From positions 1 to 56,096 of the forward strand of contig CAYIRJ010000001.1 of the NCBI GenBank assembly GCA_964365915.1: a DNA stretch of 56,096 bases, given 5' to 3'. The notes beneath the pieces are model-generated. The model did no database searches and was not told where the DNA came from. It worked only from the letters and a program-made list of their open reading frames with translations. Shown here one piece after another: positions 1,486-12,815 of this stretch; the stretch's first letter is position 1; each line of letters opens with the position of its first letter. The translations under genes and the position numbers were made by a program. The stretch comes from Candidatus Woesearchaeota archaeon. Lineage in GTDB: Archaea; Nanobdellota; Nanobdellia; SCGC-AAA011-G17; DATDVL01.

Positions 1486-3130
1486 AGAAGGAAGAGGCAT
1501 CAGCGAGCACATCACGCACGACTGGAGAGAGATCGTCATTGCCTTAAGAAAGGATATCGATCTTGCACCGGACAGCGCAACGCAGGAATATCTTGCAAAA
1601 GTAAAAAGTGCAGATCCCATACATACCGTAGCTTCTGACTTGTTAGTGCATGGGTGCGGGCATCGGGAGTTGCCTGCGTATTCAGGATTGGGCTGCCCAC
1701 ATTCTGTCATTCATCACGATCGAATTTTAGACGGCATAGCAGAAGCCTTGCAGAAGAAGAAAAAGAAAGGCCTTGAGCAGTATGTGGCAAATGCGTTCGA
1801 GGATGTGTTGGACAACGTCAATGCGCGCAGGCATACACGTCACGCCGGACAAGTTTTATTTTGGAACAACGAAGGCTTAGAAGCACAAGGAAAATTCCCT
1901 CCTTTCTATGAGGCATTTGTAAAAATCAACCTTGCCATGATGGGAAAACCAGAAGATGCAACGTTATTGCGGAGATTCTTTTCTAATGAATCAAAAGTGC
2001 AGCAGGCAGTAAAATCCTTCCTTAATTATATAAAAGAGAAGACGAATGTAGCGCATGTGGTGCGAGCCCATGAGCGACCAAGGCTCTTCAACCAGTTGTT
2101 TGAAAAAAAACACTGGCGAGATCTTGCGTATCAGTTTGCATGGGCAACTGCGGACTTGTTAGACCAGCAATCTACTCAAATGCGCCTCTGTTTTGGAAGC
2201 GATGAAAATCCTTTTGATAGGATGATGCGTCTTCCAGAATCTCAGGAAAAAATCGCGTATGGCAGATATCAGGCAGGCGAAGGTCCGAGCAAGCATACTG
2301 ATCAGCTATTACAGTTGGATGCCTTGTACCGAAAGATTTCCAAGGCAATTCCTGTAAAGACTTCGGAATATACTAAGGCCTCGGGAATGCCGTTGGTGTA
2401 TTTTGGAAGAAGAGCATTGCAGGAAGATGAAGATATTTCTCACGCACGTGTGAAAGGCATCGGCCTTGATGAATCAGGAAAACTAGGATTGCGGGTAGCG
2501 CGTCATGTACTGCAGCATCCTGCCACTTACAAAGTGCATCCAAGAAATTTTCCTAAATTGAAAGTGGCATTGTTAGACACCTCAGGAAGCATGGCACTCT
2601 CTCCTGAAAATGATGCGAATACAGGTTCAAAGCATTTCATTCCTTGGGGGGACAACAGCAAATATCATTTTGCATTAAAGGGGCTGTACGGCATTGATAA
2701 CTTCTTGGAGAAGCAGGGCGTTGCTCCCTATGTGGATTCAGAAGCAGTAACCTTCAGTAGCGAAACCACAAGAACAGGCAGAAGAAAGATGAGAAGCCTG
2801 GAAGAGCGCAAAGCCTTATTGAAAATACCCTCAGGGGGAACAACAATAAATATAAGAACATTTGAAGATGCGCTGTCCGATCCTTCATTTGTGGTTTCCA
2901 TCTCTGACGGGGACATTCTGAACTGGAAGGGAGTAAAGAAAAAATTTAAAGAAGTAATGCGGGGAAAAGCATATTGCCCCATTCACATTGGCAATGCAAA
3001 CACATTTACACAGGATGTAGAATCGTGGGGGATTCCTGTGCACTATGTCAAAGGCGATGACGATTTAAGTAGAATCATGATCGATACCGTTTCTCAGTAT
3101 TATCGGAAAGGAAGGTTTGCACAACCATGA
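1403..3130 (+). CDS. VWA (von Willebrand factor A) domain protein with an uncharacterised His/Cys-rich N-terminal region
   Basis: C-terminal MIDAS-like residues: LLDTSGSM (DxSxS), then SGGTTIN and SISDGD. The N-terminal region contains HGCGHRE and CPHSVIHHD. The stop overlaps the start of target 2 (ATGA). Confidence 0.8.
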   Translation: MKNLKKILEQEKNRIGLVGTRLHLQQPEEGRGISEHITHDWREIVIALRKDIDLAPDSATQEYLAKVKSADPIHTVASDLLVHGCGHRELPAYSGLGCPHSVIHHDRILDGIAEALQKKKKKGLEQYVANAFEDVLDNVNARRHTRHAGQVLFWNNEGLEAQGKFPPFYEAFVKINLAMMGKPEDATLLRRFFSNESKVQQAVKSFLNYIKEKTNVAHVVRAHERPRLFNQLFEKKHWRDLAYQFAWATADLLDQQSTQMRLCFGSDENPFDRMMRLPESQEKIAYGRYQAGEGPSKHTDQLLQLDALYRKISKAIPVKTSEYTKASGMPLVYFGRRALQEDEDISHARVKGIGLDESGKLGLRVARHVLQHPATYKVHPRNFPKLKVALLDTSGSMALSPENDANTGSKHFIPWGDNSKYHFALKGLYGIDNFLEKQGVAPYVDSEAVTFSSETTRTGRRKMRSLEERKALLKIPSGGTTINIRTFEDALSDPSFVVSISDGDILNWKGVKKKFKEVMRGKAYCPIHIGNANTFTQDVESWGIPVHYVKGDDDLSRIMIDTVSQYYRKGRFAQP

Positions 3131-3903
3131 AATCACGCCTCATCACCGGAAACAGGACTGCAGAGGATATCATCAAGGCATACGAGCTGCGCGAGCAGGA
3201 AAGAAAGAGCAAGAAAGCAGAAGTCCATGAAGAGCAATATCAGCCAGAAGAACCAGAAACTGCAATTCCAGCACCACAGCAATCTGCAGGTAAAGCAGCC
3301 TACATCATTCTGCCAGGTCATACCCATGATGCTTATTCCTATCCAGACCTATTAGTAGCAAAAGTACGTTCCCATCAAAGTAAAGATTGGAATCAAGCGC
3401 ATCAAGCATTGCATCAGCAGCAAGCATCCATGCTGACCATCAGACAGTTTGTAGACTTTTTAGCACATCTCAAGGCACGCAAAGTCTATGATGGCACAGG
3501 CAGCAAAGTTGCAAAAGCAGATATCAAGCAACTCCTTGAAGATATTTTAGCTCAAAGAGCGCCCTGGAGAGCAGAATGGCTCGACGCTTTGTTCACAGAA
3601 GACAACGGGATTTGGAAAATAAAGTATGGTCATCAGGAGAAAAAAGGAAAGCTGGTAGCAAGATATCATGAGCCTTTGGAAGCCTGCATCCGGGAAGATT
3701 GCTATGTGAATCTGTTCAGCGCCAACAAGCAAGGCCTTCCCACCAGGAAAGTTAGCAAGCAGGAAATCTACTACTGGCAGCCCGGAAATGGTACTGTCGC
3801 GAGGTTCTTGGCGGATTCTGGTAGGGTCGACCTGTATTGCTACGGGGATCGGCGGAGCTCGGTTGCTGCCTTGGGGGTACGTGAAGTCCGCGAGCGCCGC
3901 TAG
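3127..3903 (+). CDS. DGR target protein paralog 2 (intact); short C-type-lectin/FGE-like C-terminus carrying VR2
   Basis: The C-terminus reads GTVARFLADSGRVDLYCYGDRRSSVAALGVREV, and the corresponding TR frame reads SVARFRADSDRVNLNCNRDRQNS. No signal peptide or TM segment is visible. Confidence 0.85.
   Translation: MKSRLITGNRTAEDIIKAYELREQERKSKKAEVHEEQYQPEEPETAIPAPQQSAGKAAYIILPGHTHDAYSYPDLLVAKVRSHQSKDWNQAHQALHQQQASMLTIRQFVDFLAHLKARKVYDGTGSKVAKADIKQLLEDILAQRAPWRAEWLDALFTEDNGIWKIKYGHQEKKGKLVARYHEPLEACIREDCYVNLFSANKQGLPTRKVSKQEIYYWQPGNGTVARFLADSGRVDLYCYGDRRSSVAALGVREVRERR
3795..3880 (+). repeat. DGR variable repeat VR2
   Basis: There are 14 substitutions against the TR, 12 of them at TR adenines. 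It is followed by a GC-rich conserved flank shared with VR1 (an IMH-like region). Confidence 0.85.
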
Positions 3904-3940
3904 GCGCGAGCTCTGCAACGAAAAATTTTACGGGATATAT

Positions 3941-3949
3941 TTTTAAATA
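3941..3949 (+). promoter_or_regulatory. Candidate archaeal TATA box for the TR-RT transcript
   Basis: ttttaaata lies in the non-coding gap after target 2, about 210 nt upstream of the TR. Confidence 0.35.
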
Positions 3950-4160
3950 ACCAAGATTCTATTTTTTCGCCCTAGAGCTATCGGGAGCTTCCTCCCAAAG
4001 GAGAAGCGATGAAGGATACAAAGCTGGGGCTACACGTAAGCCTGCAAGTGCACGAAAGTGCCATGAAATACAATGACAACAATTAGTAGTAATGATCCAC
4101 CTTGGGAAAGTTGTGAATGAAGCTTGAAGTCATGGTGAAACTCAGCAGGCTTGCTACATC

Positions 4161-4264
4161 TGTCGCGAGGTTCAGGGCGGATTCTGATAGGGTCAACCTG
4201 AATTGCAACAGGGATCGGCAGAACTCGAAATCTTTTCAAGACGAGATTGCTGCTTTGGGAATAA
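4161..4264 (+). repeat. DGR template repeat (TR)
   Basis: Non-coding copy of the target 3' end. The frame corresponding to the VR frame has four AAY codons (AAC, AAT, AAC, AAC). It contains an extra 18 nt (4228-4245) absent from both VRs. It ends 18 nt before the RT ATG. Confidence 0.85.
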
Positions 4265-4282
4265 CACCAGCGCTCTAGGGAT

Positions 4283-5389
4283 ATGAAAACGTACCCAGAT
4301 ATTTATGCACAGCTCTGTTCTTTAGAAAATTTGGAAAGTGCATTCCAGAAAGCAAAGCTTGGCAAATCGAAAAAGTTGTATGTTCTAGAATTTGAAGCCA
4401 ATCTGAAAGAAAATTTAGAACAGTTGCAAAAAGAATTACAATTGCAGACCTACATGCCGCAGCCACTGAAAAGGTTTATCATCAGGGATCCAAAGACGAG
4501 AGTCATCCATGCATCTGCTTTCCTCGACAGGGTTGTCCACCATGCGATTACCAATGTGCTGGGTCCTATCTTTGAAAAGAAATTTGTTTATGATTCCTAT
4601 GCAAGTAGGGTAAATAAAGGCACGCATAAAGCAATACAGCGATTCGCGCAATTCATGAGAAAAGTCTCGAGAAACGGTGCGCAAGTAACGCAGGCAGCCA
4701 CAAACAATCACATTCAGGGATATGTGTTGAAGGCAGATATTCAGCATTATTTTGATACTGTAGATCATGAAATATTGATAGCTATTCTCAGAAAAATTGT
4801 TCCGGATGAGAAACTCATCAACCTAGTAAAGAAGATCTTGAATAATCTGGACATGAAAATTTCTGGCAAAGGAATGCCTTTGGGGAATTACACTTCACAA
4901 TTTTTTGCTAACGTGTACTTGAATGAACTAGACTATTTTGTTAAGCATGTCCTTCAATGCAAATATTACATCCGTTACGTGGATGACTTTGTGATCTTGC
5001 ACTCAAATAAGGGAATATTAGAAAACTATGGCGTACGTATTAAAGAATTTTTAAGAGCAATAAAGTTGGAATTGCATCCGCAAAAGTCCAAGATTCTCCC
5101 TTTGAAAGATGGGATTACATTTCTTGGATACAAAATATTCTATTGTTACAGGCTACTAAGAAGAAGGAACCGTTTCCGCTTTGAAAGAAGGTTCAAGGAC
5201 TATCTGCAGCAATGTAAGGATGGAGAATTAACCTATTTCGAAATTGTAACAAAGCTACAAGGATGGTTTGGATATGCGAAATGGGCAAATACGTACAGAT
5301 ACAGAAAATTGATTTTCAAAAGATTAAATCAAGAAGTATTAGCTCAACGCATACCGCAAGATAGCAGCCACTCCTCCCATGTCGCGTAG
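4283..5389 (+). CDS. DGR-type reverse transcriptase
   Basis: RT motifs seen: RVIHASAFLDRVVHHAI, YASRVNKGTHKAI, LKADIQHYFDTVDH, MPLGNYTSQFFANVYLNELD (the DGR hallmark I/LGxxxSQ) and YIRYVDDFV (YxDD). No group II maturase or endonuclease tail. Confidence 0.9.
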   Translation: MKTYPDIYAQLCSLENLESAFQKAKLGKSKKLYVLEFEANLKENLEQLQKELQLQTYMPQPLKRFIIRDPKTRVIHASAFLDRVVHHAITNVLGPIFEKKFVYDSYASRVNKGTHKAIQRFAQFMRKVSRNGAQVTQAATNNHIQGYVLKADIQHYFDTVDHEILIAILRKIVPDEKLINLVKKILNNLDMKISGKGMPLGNYTSQFFANVYLNELDYFVKHVLQCKYYIRYVDDFVILHSNKGILENYGVRIKEFLRAIKLELHPQKSKILPLKDGITFLGYKIFYCYRLLRRRNRFRFERRFKDYLQQCKDGELTYFEIVTKLQGWFGYAKWANTYRYRKLIFKRLNQEVLAQRIPQDSSHSSHVA

Positions 5390-6427
5390 CTGCTGCCCTT
5401 CCCTGCTTTGTGTGCTGATAATTTGCACTTTCGTGCCATGACCTTCAGCTTCATCCATTAATCCCTCTAACACGAATTCATCTAAGTCTTCGCTTAGCAG
5501 CAAAAGTTCTACTGCCCCCAGGTTCAATGCTTCATGGACTTCTTCTTTGCCATAAGAAGCCTTTTTCGGATCTTTTGCTAACGTCATCAAAAATCGTTCC
5601 ACTGCTTTTTTTTCTTCCACAATGTTCTCCTGTGCTAAAATATCTTTGCTTGCATCAACAAGATCGTGCAGTCCATGCTCATCCGTGTAGGTCAAATCAA
5701 ATATCCCTTTGACTTTGCGCTTCAATTCGTTATTCAATTGGTCAATAAAAGTGTTTTTGGTGTGTCCAGGCCCGCCGATCAAGACACCTTTCAAATCCTT
5801 GATCACAGGTAAAAATTGTTTGTCGCAGAATTCAGCAACCCTTTTATAAAATTCCAATGCCATGCCATCAATGAGCCTTTCCAGGCGTTGCGAGCTCTGT
5901 CCTCCCGCTTTAAACTTTCCCGGTACGCCAGAAGTAAGAGTATGCAGTACTTGAATATAGCTTCCGCGCATTAAGCCAACCGTCGCTTCCTTCCTATCCA
6001 TGACAATCAGCGCATAGAATTCCTTTTCCTCAAGCATCTGTTCTAAAATGTCAGTCTTGAAGGTTTGATCGCAGCGGTAAATGCGTTGCCCTATAGGAAC
6101 AGGGGGTTCAATGCTGAACACTTGAATGTCAATCTTATTTTCCTTGTCAGAAACGTTGCCAGCAAACACTGCTAATCCATTGGGCGGAGTTTTCTTGAAC
6201 AAGCGCAAATGATTGATCACTCTTCCTAAACTATCCACAACATTATTTCTTGTGCGTGCATCTTTAATATTCGTTGCAGTGCCTGCTTCCTGCTCCAAAT
6301 GCTGGATAATCTTGATAATATCGTACCCTGCAGGCACATATACCGAAACCAGTTCCGTATGCCTTCCGCGCATGTGTTGCAACGGCCTGATAAATTTCTT
6401 CAGTTTCAATTTCTCTTTGAGTTCCAT
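5339..6427 (-). CDS. prf1: Peptide chain release factor aRF1
   Basis: GGQ motif (KAGGQSSQRLERL). The NIKS-loop region reads TATNIKDARTRNNV. Length and domain order are typical of aRF1. Confidence 0.95.
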   Translation of the reverse strand: MELKEKLKLKKFIRPLQHMRGRHTELVSVYVPAGYDIIKIIQHLEQEAGTATNIKDARTRNNVVDSLGRVINHLRLFKKTPPNGLAVFAGNVSDKENKIDIQVFSIEPPVPIGQRIYRCDQTFKTDILEQMLEEKEFYALIVMDRKEATVGLMRGSYIQVLHTLTSGVPGKFKAGGQSSQRLERLIDGMALEFYKRVAEFCDKQFLPVIKDLKGVLIGGPGHTKNTFIDQLNNELKRKVKGIFDLTYTDEHGLHDLVDASKDILAQENIVEEKKAVERFLMTLAKDPKKASYGKEEVHEALNLGAVELLLLSEDLDEFVLEGLMDEAEGHGTKVQIISTQSREGQQLRDMGGVAAILRYALS

Positions 6428-6429
6428 GG

Positions 6430-8811
6430 TTAATGGGTAATCTTCAGTTCAGTTCCAAATGTAATGGTTGCGCAAGTCACCGCAGCAAGGTCGTATAAGA
6501 CTTCTGCAAGGCGCTCTTCCGTGTCTTTGGGCAAGATAAGCTGGACGGGTTTTTTCAGGTTGAGCTGGTGCTGTGCCTTGTACTTTCTTACCTCTTGCAA
6601 AACTGCAATGAACTCCTCGCCTATCTTTTCCTCAGGCTCATACGCAAAATGTTGAACAACAGGCCAGGAAGAGAGATGAATGGAGAGAGCTTCCTCATCT
6701 TTTTTGAAATGCGACTGGTAAATTTCTTCAGTAATGAAAGGCATGAGGGGGGCAAATAATTTCAACAAGGTCTTCAGGCAAAGATGCAGAGTATATTGCG
6801 CAGATCTTTTTGATTCTCCATTCCGCTCTGTATTGTACAGTCTATCTTTGGCAATTTCCAGATAGTGATCACAGAATGTTGTCCAAAAGAACTGCTCGGT
6901 TTCGAATTTTGCCTTTGCATACTCATAATCATCAAGATATTTCGTGCAGTGTGCTACAAGCCGGTCAAGTTTCTGGAGTAACCAGCGGTCGATCACTTCC
7001 ACATGGTCCGGCGCAATGCCTGAATATTCTTGCAAATTGCTCAAAACAAGATGCGCTGCATTCCAGAGTTTCGTAACCGTCTTCTGTCCAGTAATGAGGT
7101 CTTTTTCCTGGTAGCTGATGTCTTCTCCCAGTTTGCTGCCTGCTGCCCAGAAGCGCAGAGCATCCGCCCCGAATTTTTTCATTACCTCAATAGGGTCAAG
7201 GACATTGCCTTTGCTCTTGCTCATTTTTTCCCCTTGAGGGTCAACTACATAGCCAGAAATAGTGATATGCTTCCAGGGAATAGAATTGTGCAAGTATAAA
7301 CTCTTGACGATGGTATAGAATGCCCATGTAGAAATGATGTCTTGCGCCTGCGGGCGCAAGTCCATGGGAATTTTTTCCTGAATACCATAAGTGGAAAATG
7401 CAATCTGCGGCGACACAGAGGAAGTTGCCCAGGTATCCATCACATCCTTTTCAGGAACAAATGCAGAAGATCCGCAATGGCATTTCTTTTTCGGTGGCTT
7501 GTCTTTCAGAGGATCCACAGGCAAGTCTTTTACATCTGCAAGAATAATTTCATCGCACTGCTTGCAGTACCATACAGGAAAGGGAATGCCAAAGAATCGC
7601 TGTCTGCTAATACACCAATCCCATTGTAAATTTTCCACCCAGTGTTCATAGCGTTTTTTCATAAACTCGGGGTACCAGATGATAGTATTGCCTGCTGTAA
7701 TCCAGTCTTCCTTTTTGTCAAGCACGCGCGTGAACCATTGCTTTGTTTTCAAAAACTCAATCGGTGTGTTACAGCGTTCATGAACATTAGTAGTATGGTG
7801 AATATTTTTTTGGTTTTTTAATAAGCCGGAAGTTTTCAGGTCTTCAAGAATTGCTTTTCTAGCATGGTGGATAGGAAGTTTGGCATATTTCCCTGCAAGT
7901 TCATTCAGTGTTCCGTCTTTGTTGAAGATTGCGCGCAAGGGTAATTTATACTGGTGCCATAATTCAATATCTGATTTGTCACCAAAGGTACACACCATCA
8001 TTAAACCCGTACCTTTTTCCCGATCAACCTTTGCATCTGCTAAGATAGGAATTTCATAAGGGAATAAAGGAACAGTTGCATGCTTGCCAATGTATTTTTT
8101 GTAACGCTTGTCTTCAGGATGCGCAAATAAAGCAACACACGCAGGAAGCAATTCAGGACGCGTTGTAGCAATGATGACTGAATCTTTTCCAACAGTGAAC
8201 TGAATATCATTGAATAAACTATCTTTCTCCAAATCTTTTAATTCTGCTTGGGCAATCGCAGTCTGGCATTCTACACACCACATCGTCGGAGATTCCTGCC
8301 GATACACTGCTCCTTGATGATAGAGTTCAATGAATGCTTGCTGGCTAATCTTTTGTGAAGTCTCATCAATAGTTGAGTAGCTCTTGCTAAAATCACAACT
8401 CATGCCCAGGTTTTTCCACGGCTGCACAAAATCCTTTTTGATTTCTTTAATGGTGGTAAAGCAGAGTTTGACAAATTCCGGACGGGACATACTCACGCCT
8501 TTGACATTTTTCATCTTTTCTACTAAGCGTTCAGTTGGCAATCCATTATCATCGGTGCCAAACGGACAAAACACATTGAATCCTTGCATTCTTTTATAGC
8601 GTGCAATAAAATCTTGCTGCGCATACGAGAAGGCATGGCCGATATGCATTTTGCCAGAAACAGTGGGGGGAGGAGTATCAATAGTAAATGATTTCTTTTT
8701 TGCTTTCGTAGCAAAAGAATAAATCTTGTGCTTCTCCCAGTAGGCTAACCACTTCTGTTCTGTTGCTTGAGGGGTAAAGGTAGGCATATGGTTGGTCTTC
8801 CAACAACCCAT
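6430..8811 (-). CDS. valS: Valyl-tRNA synthetase (archaeal type)
   Basis: TPPPTVSGKMHIGH (HIGH motif) and KMSKSKGN (KMSKS motif), with a class Ia editing-domain architecture. The true start may be the internal Met at 8787. Confidence 0.93.
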   Translation of the reverse strand: MGCWKTNHMPTFTPQATEQKWLAYWEKHKIYSFATKAKKKSFTIDTPPPTVSGKMHIGHAFSYAQQDFIARYKRMQGFNVFCPFGTDDNGLPTERLVEKMKNVKGVSMSRPEFVKLCFTTIKEIKKDFVQPWKNLGMSCDFSKSYSTIDETSQKISQQAFIELYHQGAVYRQESPTMWCVECQTAIAQAELKDLEKDSLFNDIQFTVGKDSVIIATTRPELLPACVALFAHPEDKRYKKYIGKHATVPLFPYEIPILADAKVDREKGTGLMMVCTFGDKSDIELWHQYKLPLRAIFNKDGTLNELAGKYAKLPIHHARKAILEDLKTSGLLKNQKNIHHTTNVHERCNTPIEFLKTKQWFTRVLDKKEDWITAGNTIIWYPEFMKKRYEHWVENLQWDWCISRQRFFGIPFPVWYCKQCDEIILADVKDLPVDPLKDKPPKKKCHCGSSAFVPEKDVMDTWATSSVSPQIAFSTYGIQEKIPMDLRPQAQDIISTWAFYTIVKSLYLHNSIPWKHITISGYVVDPQGEKMSKSKGNVLDPIEVMKKFGADALRFWAAGSKLGEDISYQEKDLITGQKTVTKLWNAAHLVLSNLQEYSGIAPDHVEVIDRWLLQKLDRLVAHCTKYLDDYEYAKAKFETEQFFWTTFCDHYLEIAKDRLYNTERNGESKRSAQYTLHLCLKTLLKLFAPLMPFITEEIYQSHFKKDEEALSIHLSSWPVVQHFAYEPEEKIGEEFIAVLQEVRKYKAQHQLNLKKPVQLILPKDTEERLAEVLYDLAAVTCATITFGTELKITH

Positions 8812-8922: not shown

Positions 8923-8930
8923 TTTAAATA
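8923..8930 (+). promoter_or_regulatory. Archaeal TATA box for tRNA-Phe
   Basis: tttaaata is centred about 30 nt upstream of the tRNA 5' end at 8956. Confidence 0.5.
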
Positions 8931-8955: not shown

Positions 8956-9098
8956 GTGGCTGTAGCTCAGCTCGGGAGAGTACATATTTAATATAGCTCA
9001 ATCCGCTGAAGCCGGAGATACCTTGCTGGGAATTTAGCAGGTACTGGATTTGTCGCTGGACTGTCTAAAAAGGGCGAATTCAAATCCAGCCAGCCACA
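8956..9098 (+). tRNA. tRNA-Phe: tRNA-Phe(GAA) with three putative non-canonical introns
   Basis: Proposed exons are 8956-8983, 9002-9017, 9050-9059 and 9079-9098. They give a 74-nt cloverleaf. Acceptor stem GTGGCTG/CAGCCAC, D-arm GCTC-AGCTCGGGA-GAGT. Anticodon arm CTCCG-CTGAAGC-CGGAG, variable loop TTGTC, T-arm GCTGG-TTCAAAT-CCAGC, discriminator A. U8, A14, G18G19, U33, G53, T54, T55, C56, A58 and C61 are all in place. CCA is not encoded. Confidence 0.65.
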
Positions 9099-9104
9099 TT
9101 TTTT
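9099..9104 (+). terminator. Oligo-T archaeal terminator after the tRNA
   Basis: A run of six T directly follows the discriminator base. Confidence 0.4.
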
Positions 9105-9211
9105 CATTTTTCCGGATTTTTCTTCATTTTCAATAAATTTTCTGGAGAAATTCGTAAAATTTCCGTACATTTTAGCACAACCTTCTTTTAACTTGTATTC
9201 CTCTCAAAAGA

Positions 9212-9517
9212 ATGTATCGCGTTTTCATGACAGAAACCTGTGAAAAGACATATATGCAATGCGATCATCGGGAGCAGATATGGATAGATAAGGTGAAGGA
9301 AAAGTTAAAACAAAATATTTCAGGAAAAATATTACAAGTCCCTTGGCTATATGAAAAGAAATTCGAAAGTAAAAGATTATATTTTATTGTAGACTTATTT
9401 TCACAAAGGATATTATTAGTAGACTTTAGCCATAAGAAGCATCAACAAATTATTATCGATGAAATAATAAACCAAAAGCATTTAGAATATCTAAGAACTA
9501 AAGCTAAACTTCTTTGA
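9212..9517 (+). CDS. RelE/ParE-like toxin candidate
   Basis: The C-terminal pattern KRLYFIVDLFSQRILLVDFSHKKHQQ resembles the RelE-family core (RiiY...v.il.i.hRk). No upstream antitoxin ORF is seen. Confidence 0.4.
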   Translation: MYRVFMTETCEKTYMQCDHREQIWIDKVKEKLKQNISGKILQVPWLYEKKFESKRLYFIVDLFSQRILLVDFSHKKHQQIIIDEIINQKHLEYLRTKAKLL

Positions 9518-11420: not shown

Positions 11421-12815
11421 ATGAAGAAGCAAATCGTTCTCTATGCTCTTGCGTTTTTAGTAGCGCTCTCGATATTTTCTGCATTATCCACAAAAGTATT
11501 ATTTACCGACGCTCCCCAGTACATCAACACTGCAAAAGAGTTTGCAGGCCTGGCTATTTCCAAAGTCAGGAATTTTTCTGCATGGCTCTATCCGTTATTC
11601 CTAGGGCAGTTCCTCAAGGTCTTTCCCAGTTTGTTCACCTTGCAATTTCTGAATGTTCTTTGGCTGGTGTTGGATGCTATATTGTTATACCATATGACAA
11701 AGAAGAAAGAAGTGTTTCTCCTGTTTGCATTCTCTCCTTTAACGTGGATCATGGCTCCCTGGATCAATCCTGTTGTTCCTGCTTCGTTTTTCCTGCTGTT
11801 GGCGTATCATTTGCTGAAGCAGTATGAAGCAAAGAGAAAGCTCATGTATTTCATCAGTTCAGGCCTGTCGTTAGGTCTTGTGTCTGCGCTGTGGTGGCCG
11901 GGAACGTATCTTTGTATGTTATTTATGCTTGCCTTTTTTTACCGAGAGAAAGTGCTTATGGCTTTAGGATATCTTATTCCTGTGATAGCAACAGCAAGTA
12001 TACGTTTCTTTATTGATGCATACTATTTCGGATTTCCCTTTTTTTCCACAATTCGCGGTTTAGGAAGCAATGCGCTGTATTTTTTGGACAAGGCAGAAGT
12101 CATTCCTGGAAACCCGCCTTCGTTCTTGCTTTTTCTGGTAATGTTGGCCTTGGTCATTTCACCATTCCTGTTCAAATGGTATCAAGTAGACAAGAAAAAG
12201 CACCGTCACGAGCTTCTGTTTTTGCTGCTGGCAACGCTGTTATTTTTCTTGAATTATGAAATCCGTTATTTCATTACCATCGCGCCGCTGGTAATATTGT
12301 TATTAAGTACAGTATTGAAGAAAAATGAGTATGTAATCCATGGAGCGTTGTCCATGATGCTGATTGTGGTGTTTACTGCTTCTTATTTCGGCGTGACCGA
12401 GGAATATCTCATCAAACAAGACATCAGTGAAATCGCGCGCAAGTACCAGGGGACTACGTTCATTGTCGGCACTGAAGGCGTGTCTGAAGAGCAGGCCATG
12501 GATATTTCCACATTATATTGGGGAAGAGAAATTCCGCGCTTGATAACATATCGCGATTGGAAGATGGATGTGCAGAAAGAAAAAGTGTACAAGGAATACA
12601 GCATAGAGTCTCATGCGCGCATCAACGAAGTAAGGAAAATGAAACTTTCCATTACCTATCTGCAGTCTGACAACGTTGATGATGCGAGTTTGAAGGACTT
12701 GTTGATCCTGGGAGATGTTCCTCCCCCAGAGGGATTTGAATTAGTAAAGAAATATGCCATAATAATGCAATATCGAAAGATAAGTGAGATTTATTTAAAT
12801 AATCAAAATCTTTAA
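11421..12815 (+). CDS. Polytopic membrane protein, GT-C-like glycosyltransferase candidate
   Basis: About 10 TM segments followed by a soluble C-terminal domain. The architecture resembles ArnT/PMT-family enzymes. No diagnostic motif was verified. Confidence 0.55.
   Translation: MKKQIVLYALAFLVALSIFSALSTKVLFTDAPQYINTAKEFAGLAISKVRNFSAWLYPLFLGQFLKVFPSLFTLQFLNVLWLVLDAILLYHMTKKKEVFLLFAFSPLTWIMAPWINPVVPASFFLLLAYHLLKQYEAKRKLMYFISSGLSLGLVSALWWPGTYLCMLFMLAFFYREKVLMALGYLIPVIATASIRFFIDAYYFGFPFFSTIRGLGSNALYFLDKAEVIPGNPPSFLLFLVMLALVISPFLFKWYQVDKKKHRHELLFLLLATLLFFLNYEIRYFITIAPLVILLLSTVLKKNEYVIHGALSMMLIVVFTASYFGVTEEYLIKQDISEIARKYQGTTFIVGTEGVSEEQAMDISTLYWGREIPRLITYRDWKMDVQKEKVYKEYSIESHARINEVRKMKLSITYLQSDNVDDASLKDLLILGDVPPPEGFELVKKYAIIMQYRKISEIYLNNQNL

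Follow-up and report, generated by a model that had tools for sequence, protein, structure and literature searches.

The locus at 8956-9098 (plus strand) raises the question whether a 143-nt stretch that is passed over by standard tRNA finders can be a functional tRNA gene, from whose transcript several introns are spliced. Here and below, the window denotes the whole stretch of DNA that was analysed (56,096 nt). In the initial annotation the locus was described as a tRNA-Phe(GAA) gene with three introns at non-canonical positions, and it was expected that standard finders may miss it. This expectation holds for ARAGORN and Rfam: ARAGORN reports nothing at the unspliced 8956-9098, either with default settings or with its intron options, and no Rfam model, tRNA included, matches the unspliced locus at the gathering or the E<=10 threshold. 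With a probability that we put at roughly 90%, the locus is a functional tRNA-Phe(GAA) gene whose three introns are excised by the tRNA splicing endonuclease.

When the entire window was scanned for combinations of a T-loop/T-arm with an acceptor, no other credible tRNA candidate emerged. With relaxed settings ARAGORN gives a weak 'tRNA-Asp with intron' at 11738-11877, which lies inside ORF 11421-12815 and is regarded as spurious.

The gene, in which CCA is not encoded, consists of four exons and three introns, all on the plus strand and in the order GTGGCTGTAGCTCAGCTCGGGAGAGTAC / ATATTTAATATAGCTCAA / TCCGCTGAAGCCGGAG / ATACCTTGCTGGGAATTTAGCAGGTACTGGAT / TTGTCGCTGG / ACTGTCTAAAAAGGGCGAA / TTCAAATCCAGCCAGCCACA. 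Exon 1 (8956-8983) holds tRNA positions 1-27, i.e. the 5' strand of the acceptor stem, the D-arm, A26 and C27, and is followed by intron 1 (8984-9001; 18 nt, at 27/28). Exon 2 (9002-9017; positions 28-43) comprises the remaining anticodon arm with the loop CTGAAGC, in which GAA occupies 9008-9010. Intron 2 (9018-9049; 32 nt, at 43/44) separates it from exon 3 (9050-9059; positions 44-53), which contributes the variable loop TTGTC, in agreement with the xTGTC of intronless relatives, and the 5' strand of the T-stem (GCTGG). After intron 3 (9060-9078; 19 nt, at 53/54), exon 4 (9079-9098; positions 54-73) completes the tRNA with the T-loop TTCAAAT, the 3' strands of T-stem and acceptor stem, and A73. 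The exons were delimited with ARAGORN, run on the spliced form, and with a structure-aware solver (see below). The boundaries of all three introns follow from the cloverleaf and agree with the register of the bulge-helix-bulge (BHB) motif and with the solver, the position of intron 2 being backed by an ortholog (L159). The coordinates and lengths given for the three segments in the initial annotation proved exact. The perfectly paired acceptor stem (GTGGCTG at 8956-8962 with CAGCCAC at 9091-9097; discriminator A9098) and the D-arm (GCTC / AGCTCGGGA / GAGT) likewise read as described there.

Excision of the three segments gives the 74-nt sequence GTGGCTGTAGCTCAGCTCGGGAGAGTACTCCGCTGAAGCCGGAGTTGTCGCTGGTTCAAATCCAGCCAGCCACA. 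ARAGORN calls it tRNA-Phe(GAA), with all stems (7, 4, 5 and 5 bp) intact, a 5-nt variable loop and A as the discriminator, so that the cloverleaf claimed for the spliced form is indeed obtained. The invariant positions fit as well: T8, G18-G19, T54-T55-C56 and A58 are all present, and G20, the anticodon GAA and A73 can also be read from the sequence. The identity set of tRNA-Phe consists of G20, G34-A35-A36 and A73. Moreover, the spliced product closely resembles the intronless tRNA-Phe of related genomes (L029, L011 and L164). The four exons are collinear within the 143 nt, an order other than that of a split or permuted tRNA gene. The same 143 nt recur without any difference in L161, a separately assembled replicate sample from the same sampling site, and therefore the locus is not an assembly artefact.

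The motif of archaeal tRNA introns, the BHB, is a 4-bp helix with two 3-nt bulges, and in each bulge cleavage follows base 2. In a canonical pre-tRNA the intron pairs with positions 32-35, and the 5' bulge is made up of positions 36 and 37 and the first base of the intron (PMC4090602). With the boundaries set by the cloverleaf alone, the rule tested was that exon bases -6 to -3 pair with intron bases n-5 to n-2. This central helix is in exact register at all three junctions: GAGT (8978-8981, a strand of the D-stem) pairs with GCTC (8996-8999) for intron 1, CCGG (9012-9015) with CTGG (9044-9047) for intron 2, and CGCT (9054-9057) with GGCG (9073-9076) for intron 3. As a consequence of this pairing, both splice sites of each intron come to lie after base 2 of a 3-nt bulge, which is also the arrangement in the canonical pre-tRNAs of archaea. 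The lack of a BHB at every junction had been named beforehand as one of the findings that would speak against a spliced gene. At random places in the window four of four pairs occur with a frequency of 0.0216 per intron, and for all three introns together this corresponds to about 1e-5 by chance. Moving the registers equally at both ends (by up to 5 nt) gives four of four pairs for none of the three introns; unequal shifts yield a few scattered cells.

The 5' bulges read AC|A, AG|A and GG|A for introns 1, 2 and 3, respectively, and the 3' bulges AA|T, AT|T and AA|T. Directly after the 5' bulge an inner helix h' follows, of 3, 5 and 2 bp: TAT/ATA in intron 1, TACCT (9019-9023) with AGGTA (9039-9043) in intron 2, and CT/AG in intron 3. 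In intron 2 it is continued by GCTG/TAGC, which includes one G-U pair. The hairpin that the initial annotation had seen in the middle intron is thus real and is part of the MFE fold, but the 3' arm quoted for it was one base off and should read TAGCAGGT, not CAGCAGGT. Inspection of intron 2 by eye revealed no C/D-box motifs. The outer helices expected to close the 3' bulges are weak, as they start with A-C (intron 1), U-G followed by G-A (intron 2) and U-U (intron 3). Given these mismatches and wobble pairs, the motifs fit the relaxed, HBh'-like form, which is known from non-canonical introns, rather than the strict hBHBh', and would therefore need an endonuclease of broad specificity. Relaxed hBH/HBh' motifs and broad-specificity endonucleases are both well described (PMC4090602).

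Intron positions were furthermore assigned with a strict solver, in which a jump is allowed only at sites obeying the 4-bp rule and every stem, along with the conserved tRNA bases, has to be present. Applied to the window, it yields introns at 27/28, 43/44 and 53/54, with one alternative for the middle intron (47/48). The initial annotation had placed the sites at about 27/28, near 43-45 and at 53/54. A middle intron at 44/45 or 45/46 fails the helix rule when checked by hand. The solver was preferred over affine-gap alignment against a tRNA template containing N positions; such a plain alignment cannot enforce stem pairing and put the introns in the wrong places.

More evidence comes from an ortholog. 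A homolog of the window's valyl-tRNA synthetase (ValRS) with 79% identity (P0001) was found in two samples, on contig L159 in one and L160 in the other, and its neighbours there are those of the window's ValRS. Both contigs carry one and the same 143-nt tRNA-Phe gene, which has the same three introns and lies upstream of and divergent from ValRS. On L159 the strict solver arrives at a single solution, namely 27/28, 43/44 and 53/54. The exons of the window and L159 are identical at 73 of 74 positions; the sole change, G10 to A10, turns a G-U into an A-U pair. Identity in the introns amounts to 15/18, about 24/32 and 14/21 for introns 1, 2 and 3. All three central helices are unchanged in L159, and the inner helices go from TAT/ATA to TAC/GTA, from TACCT/AGGTA to TGCCG/CGGCA and from CT/AG to GATT/AATC, the last of these being stronger in the ortholog. 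Between the two genes this makes five double compensatory substitutions in the inner helices and not a single disrupted pair. Given the observation that the exons are conserved while the introns diverge in a compensatory manner, we conclude that purifying selection acts on the exons and on the splice structures.

Public gene calls for these two contigs contain a 73-aa ORF antisense over the three-intron tRNA-Phe (L159 2489-2710, L160 3564-3785). The call is probably spurious and due to the tRNA having gone unrecognised. In the window a comparable 60-aa antisense ORF (8988-9170) exists, for which we found no support as a gene.

The wider occurrence of such introns was assessed with a metagenome scan for tRNA-Phe genes in which an insertion separates C27 from the anticodon loop; it gave at least 120 loci. 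Among the matches listed, the 27/28 register is represented by nine distinct sequences, i.e. the window and eight further loci, which share the bulge AC|N, a variable hairpin and G[CT]T[CT]. In a condensed alignment of this family (again from the matches listed) 96% of the cells form pairs, compared with 25-38% for slid controls; all five inner-helix pairs covary, with changes on both sides. Many genes among the matches listed have two or three introns according to the solver, for example L093 (27/28, 37/38 and 46/47), L055 (3/4, 27/28 and 37/38) and L056 (25/26, 37/38 and 46/47). The strict solver gave no solution for L105, L126, L115 and L066, which probably have relaxed helices or other geometries. 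Introns at 43/44 and 53/54 were seen, among the matches listed, only in the close ortholog of the window.

Two other patterns emerged from the scan. The tRNA-Phe genes of L055, L143, L153 and L049 have a further intron at 3/4, 4/5 or 9/10, next to the 27/28 intron and one more, and hence contain three introns too; for the 3/4 and 4/5 introns the central BHB helix is partly formed by bases of the 5' leader. Most environmental tRNA-Phe genes among the matches listed (L038-L157) are Thaumarchaeota-/Bathyarchaeota-like, with an acceptor starting GCCG and an intron at 30/31. The central helix of this intron is CAC[CT]/[AG]GTG, and many of the genes have more introns in the variable region or the T-loop.

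ValRS and tRNA-Phe are linked in several of the metagenome loci. At about 60% ValRS identity the linked tRNA-Phe is intronless (L164, L165/L166 and L011), and the named genomes that were scanned by ValRS contain two tRNA-Phe loci, both intronless and one of them adjoining ValRS. With intronless genes at about 60% identity and three introns in the 79% relative, members of the clade have between 0 and 3 introns at this locus.

The gene occupies a 400-nt gap between ValRS (6430-8811, minus strand), from which it diverges, and an ORF at 9212-9517. Its neighbours, ValRS, aRF1 and diphthamide synthase, are archaeal, and the best among the named ValRS homologs belong to genome bins of Nanoarchaeota, Woesearchaeota and Pacearchaeota. 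Judged by sequence, the host is a DPANN archaeon of the Nanoarchaeota/Woesearchaeota-like type. The aRF1 protein has an exact match on a 5-kb contig from the Hainich H51 groundwater sample, which ends short of the tRNA; an exact look-up of the ValRS protein of the window, with two start codons, returned no record.

A TATA-box-like octamer, TTTAAATA, can be read at 8923-8930 (plus strand), 25 nt upstream of tRNA position 1. The ortholog on L159 has the same octamer at the same 25-nt spacing. In the window as a whole it occurs 12 times, against 4.5 expected, and most copies are situated just upstream of ORFs or RNA genes. This distribution is consistent with the octamer being the TATA box of the host, which would make the copy at 8923 a putative promoter. 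Examples of the sites are 3942, 8923, 12794, 23021 and 35825, and one copy is found 44 nt upstream of an RT-16 RNA. Directly after the discriminator base a T6 run follows (9099-9104, plus strand), which probably represents an archaeal transcription terminator; T-runs are also seen after the tRNA-Phe genes of relatives.

Some further features of the surroundings may be recorded here. The aRF1 of the relative with 79% ValRS identity measures 494 aa and has intein-type Pfam matches, PT-HINT and Intein_splicing (L159 5298-6782, L160 6373-7857), and that of the window (5339-6427) measures 362 aa and is without intein-type Pfam matches. The latter ORF (minus strand) and a reverse transcriptase ORF (4283-5389, plus strand; Pfam RVT_1) are convergent, with 3' ends that overlap by 51 nt (5339-5389). 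The reverse transcriptase is part of a cassette that resembles a diversity-generating retroelement (3127-5389, and also 583-1485), as is an Rfam RT-16 RNA (3993-4162). A template-like repeat (4160-4227) and a variable-like repeat (3794-3861) show nine differences, eight of which are at adenines of the template. The variable-like repeat is located at the 3' end of ORF 3127-3903, and the repeats of a paralogous ORF (583-1485) are 82-92% identical to those of ORF 3127-3903.

From these data we derive the following putative pathway. Transcription would start from the TATA-box promoter TTTAAATA (8923-8930) and end at the T-run (9099-9104). Near the 3' end of each intron a 4-nt stretch would pair with the exon bases just 5' of the 5' splice site, whereby the intron stretches mimic the usual partner strands of the D-stem, the anticodon stem and the T-stem. 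The pairing is predicted to create the 4-bp helix between two 3-nt bulges, i.e. a BHB of the relaxed, HBh'-like form. EndA, the archaeal tRNA splicing endonuclease, would cut each bulge after base 2; an RNA ligase, in archaea of the RtcB type, would join the exons, and CCA would be added later. As to the order of events, the motifs of introns 1 and 3 should form in the full precursor, and that of intron 2 should become accessible only once intron 3 is gone.

The proposed order is based on folding predictions. The full precursor has an MFE of -51.5 kcal/mol (z = -3.6 relative to shuffled sequences). Pair probabilities in this precursor are 0.94-0.98 for the central helix of intron 1 and 0.93-0.99 for that of intron 3; the central helix of intron 2 has a probability of approximately 0 in the thermodynamic model and is absent from the full-length MFE fold. 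The MFE fold, the pair probabilities and constrained folds point to a 9-bp outer helix of the intron-3 motif, in which CTGGATTTG (9044-9052, plus strand) pairs with CAAATCCAG (9081-9089). Positions 9044-9052 comprise the tail of intron 2 and the start of exon 3. The 9-bp helix thus competes with the intron-2 motif, and because these bases are bound in it the central helix of intron 2 hardly forms. A constraint that imposes the intron-2 helix costs 5.0 kcal/mol as long as the precursor is complete; after removal of intron 3 it costs only 1.6 kcal/mol above the MFE, and the T-arm is then normal. Conversely, when intron 2 is deleted the probability of the intron-3 central helix falls to 0.10-0.14. 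The model suggests that introns 1 and 3 would be removed first and intron 2 last.

It might be argued that the three introns form an interdependent splicing programme, recently acquired by a narrow DPANN lineage and including positions (43/44 and 53/54) that may be uncatalogued. If the intron-2 motif can be formed only after loss of intron 3, the removal order would be hard-wired. Positions 9044-9052 would then provide the outer helix by which intron 3 is offered to the endonuclease, and, with intronless genes at about 60% ValRS identity and all three introns shared at 79%, the lineage would offer a natural snapshot of the gain of non-canonical tRNA introns. We put this forward tentatively, as an extension of the spliced-gene interpretation that is possible though rather doubtful.

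Several explanations compete with that of a functional, spliced gene. The locus could be a decaying tRNA-Phe pseudogene with three insertions, which is no longer processed and leaves the supply of tRNA-Phe to another gene. Such decay would fit with the failure of the standard finders and with the imperfect outer helices of the BHB motifs, and since the window covers only 56 kb, a second and intact tRNA-Phe gene could be located elsewhere. Against this, removal of the three segments yields a flawless cloverleaf in which all four stems are paired, the BHB register is found at three of three junctions, at chance odds of about 1e-5, and the promoter-like box and the T-run have been kept. The near-identity of the exons at 79% ValRS identity, with introns that diverged through compensatory changes, is also contrary to what decay would produce. 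Altogether a pseudogene is very unlikely.

A second alternative leaves the gene functional and concerns the middle intron, which could be situated at 47/48 (9022-9053), with AGAT/ATTT as its central helix and ATACC as the variable loop. For the window this is the other zero-mismatch solution of the strict solver. The helix fails in the ortholog, however (AGTT/ATTT on L159), where the solver returns only 43/44. An intron at 47/48 would also give the two orthologs unequal exons (ATACC in one, TTGCC in the other); with 43/44 both have TTGTC, a loop that furthermore matches the xTGTC of intronless relatives. Finally, the 5' bulge would fall inside the conserved TACCT/AGGTA hairpin. We therefore retain 43/44 and consider 47/48 highly improbable.

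A route without the endonuclease, by which the segments are self-splicing introns or remnants of mobile elements, or the whole is a long unspliced tRNA-like RNA with another role, is scarcely credible: a Pfam scan for EndA in ten window ORFs of 168-239 aa found none, but insertions of 18, 32 and 19 nt are far too short for group I/II introns (with no Rfam match at E<=10), what is conserved corresponds exactly to the features of a BHB substrate, and archaea are known to use EndA for introns of this kind (PMC4090602).

Having retained the interpretation of a functional tRNA-Phe(GAA) gene spliced by the endonuclease, we compared it with known systems. For the Thermoproteales it is textbook knowledge that a tRNA gene can have several introns, up to three, and that these can be non-canonical (PMC4033280, PMC8450103); tRNA-Pro(UGG) of Pyrobaculum islandicum, for instance, has introns at 25/26, 37/38 and 56/57. 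The epithet 'unusual' used in the initial annotation consequently needs tempering, as up to three introns per archaeal tRNA gene are established (PMC8450103, PMC4033280). The window gene resembles those of the Thermoproteales (Crenarchaeota) in its up to three short non-canonical introns, in the BHB or relaxed HBh'/hBH motifs that use exon bases and in the restored cloverleaf. Successive removal of introns is sometimes needed in the Thermoproteales (PMC4090602, PMC4033280, PMC8450103). The differences lie in the host, which is an uncultivated, mesophilic, AT-rich groundwater DPANN archaeon whereas the Thermoproteales are hyperthermophilic and have an (alpha-beta)2 endonuclease, and in the intron positions, as none of the three window introns is at the canonical 37/38.

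The Thaumarchaeota-/Bathyarchaeota-like tRNA-Phe genes share the tRNA species, the mechanism and an intron on the 5' side of the anticodon stem; theirs is at 30/31, usually with one or two introns per gene, and that of the window at 27/28. Nuclear tRNA genes of Cyanidioschyzon merolae also contain several BHB-bounded non-canonical introns per gene (PMC3728597). This is a red alga, however, with eukaryotic machinery and with some genes permuted, whereas the window gene is collinear.

The closest framework is provided by the DPANN archaea. Kaneta et al. (2018) described DPANN members including Pacearchaeota and Woesearchaeota as having an alpha4 EndA with an extra L3 loop, linked loop insertions in DPANN EndA to more disruption of tRNA genes and to non-canonical and multiple introns, and noted that incomplete DPANN tRNA sets point to disrupted genes yet unidentified (PMC5829648). 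Known DPANN enzymes comprise the epsilon2 EndA of ARMAN-2 and the alpha4 EndA with L3 loop of Pacearchaeota and Woesearchaeota, and the window host is from the same superphylum. That study covered four DPANN genomes, and the lineage and gene of the window are not among them (PMC5829648). The locus is a disrupted DPANN tRNA gene of the kind it foresaw (PMC5829648). The gene type is already known in archaea, and the current view of tRNA splicing is unchanged.

For the biology of the group the locus is of value in other respects. DPANN genomes often seem to miss tRNAs, owing to disruption that is beyond the reach of standard finders, and this locus fills such a gap. Loci of this kind distort the tRNA inventories and also the protein annotation of MAGs, as the probably spurious ORF over the tRNA gene of the ortholog illustrates. 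Taken together, the window, its ortholog on L159 and the intronless genes found in more distant relatives form a small and clean data set from which the turnover of non-canonical introns can be followed at a single locus, and the ortholog pair with the intronless loci provides defined substrates for the specificity of the DPANN splicing endonuclease.
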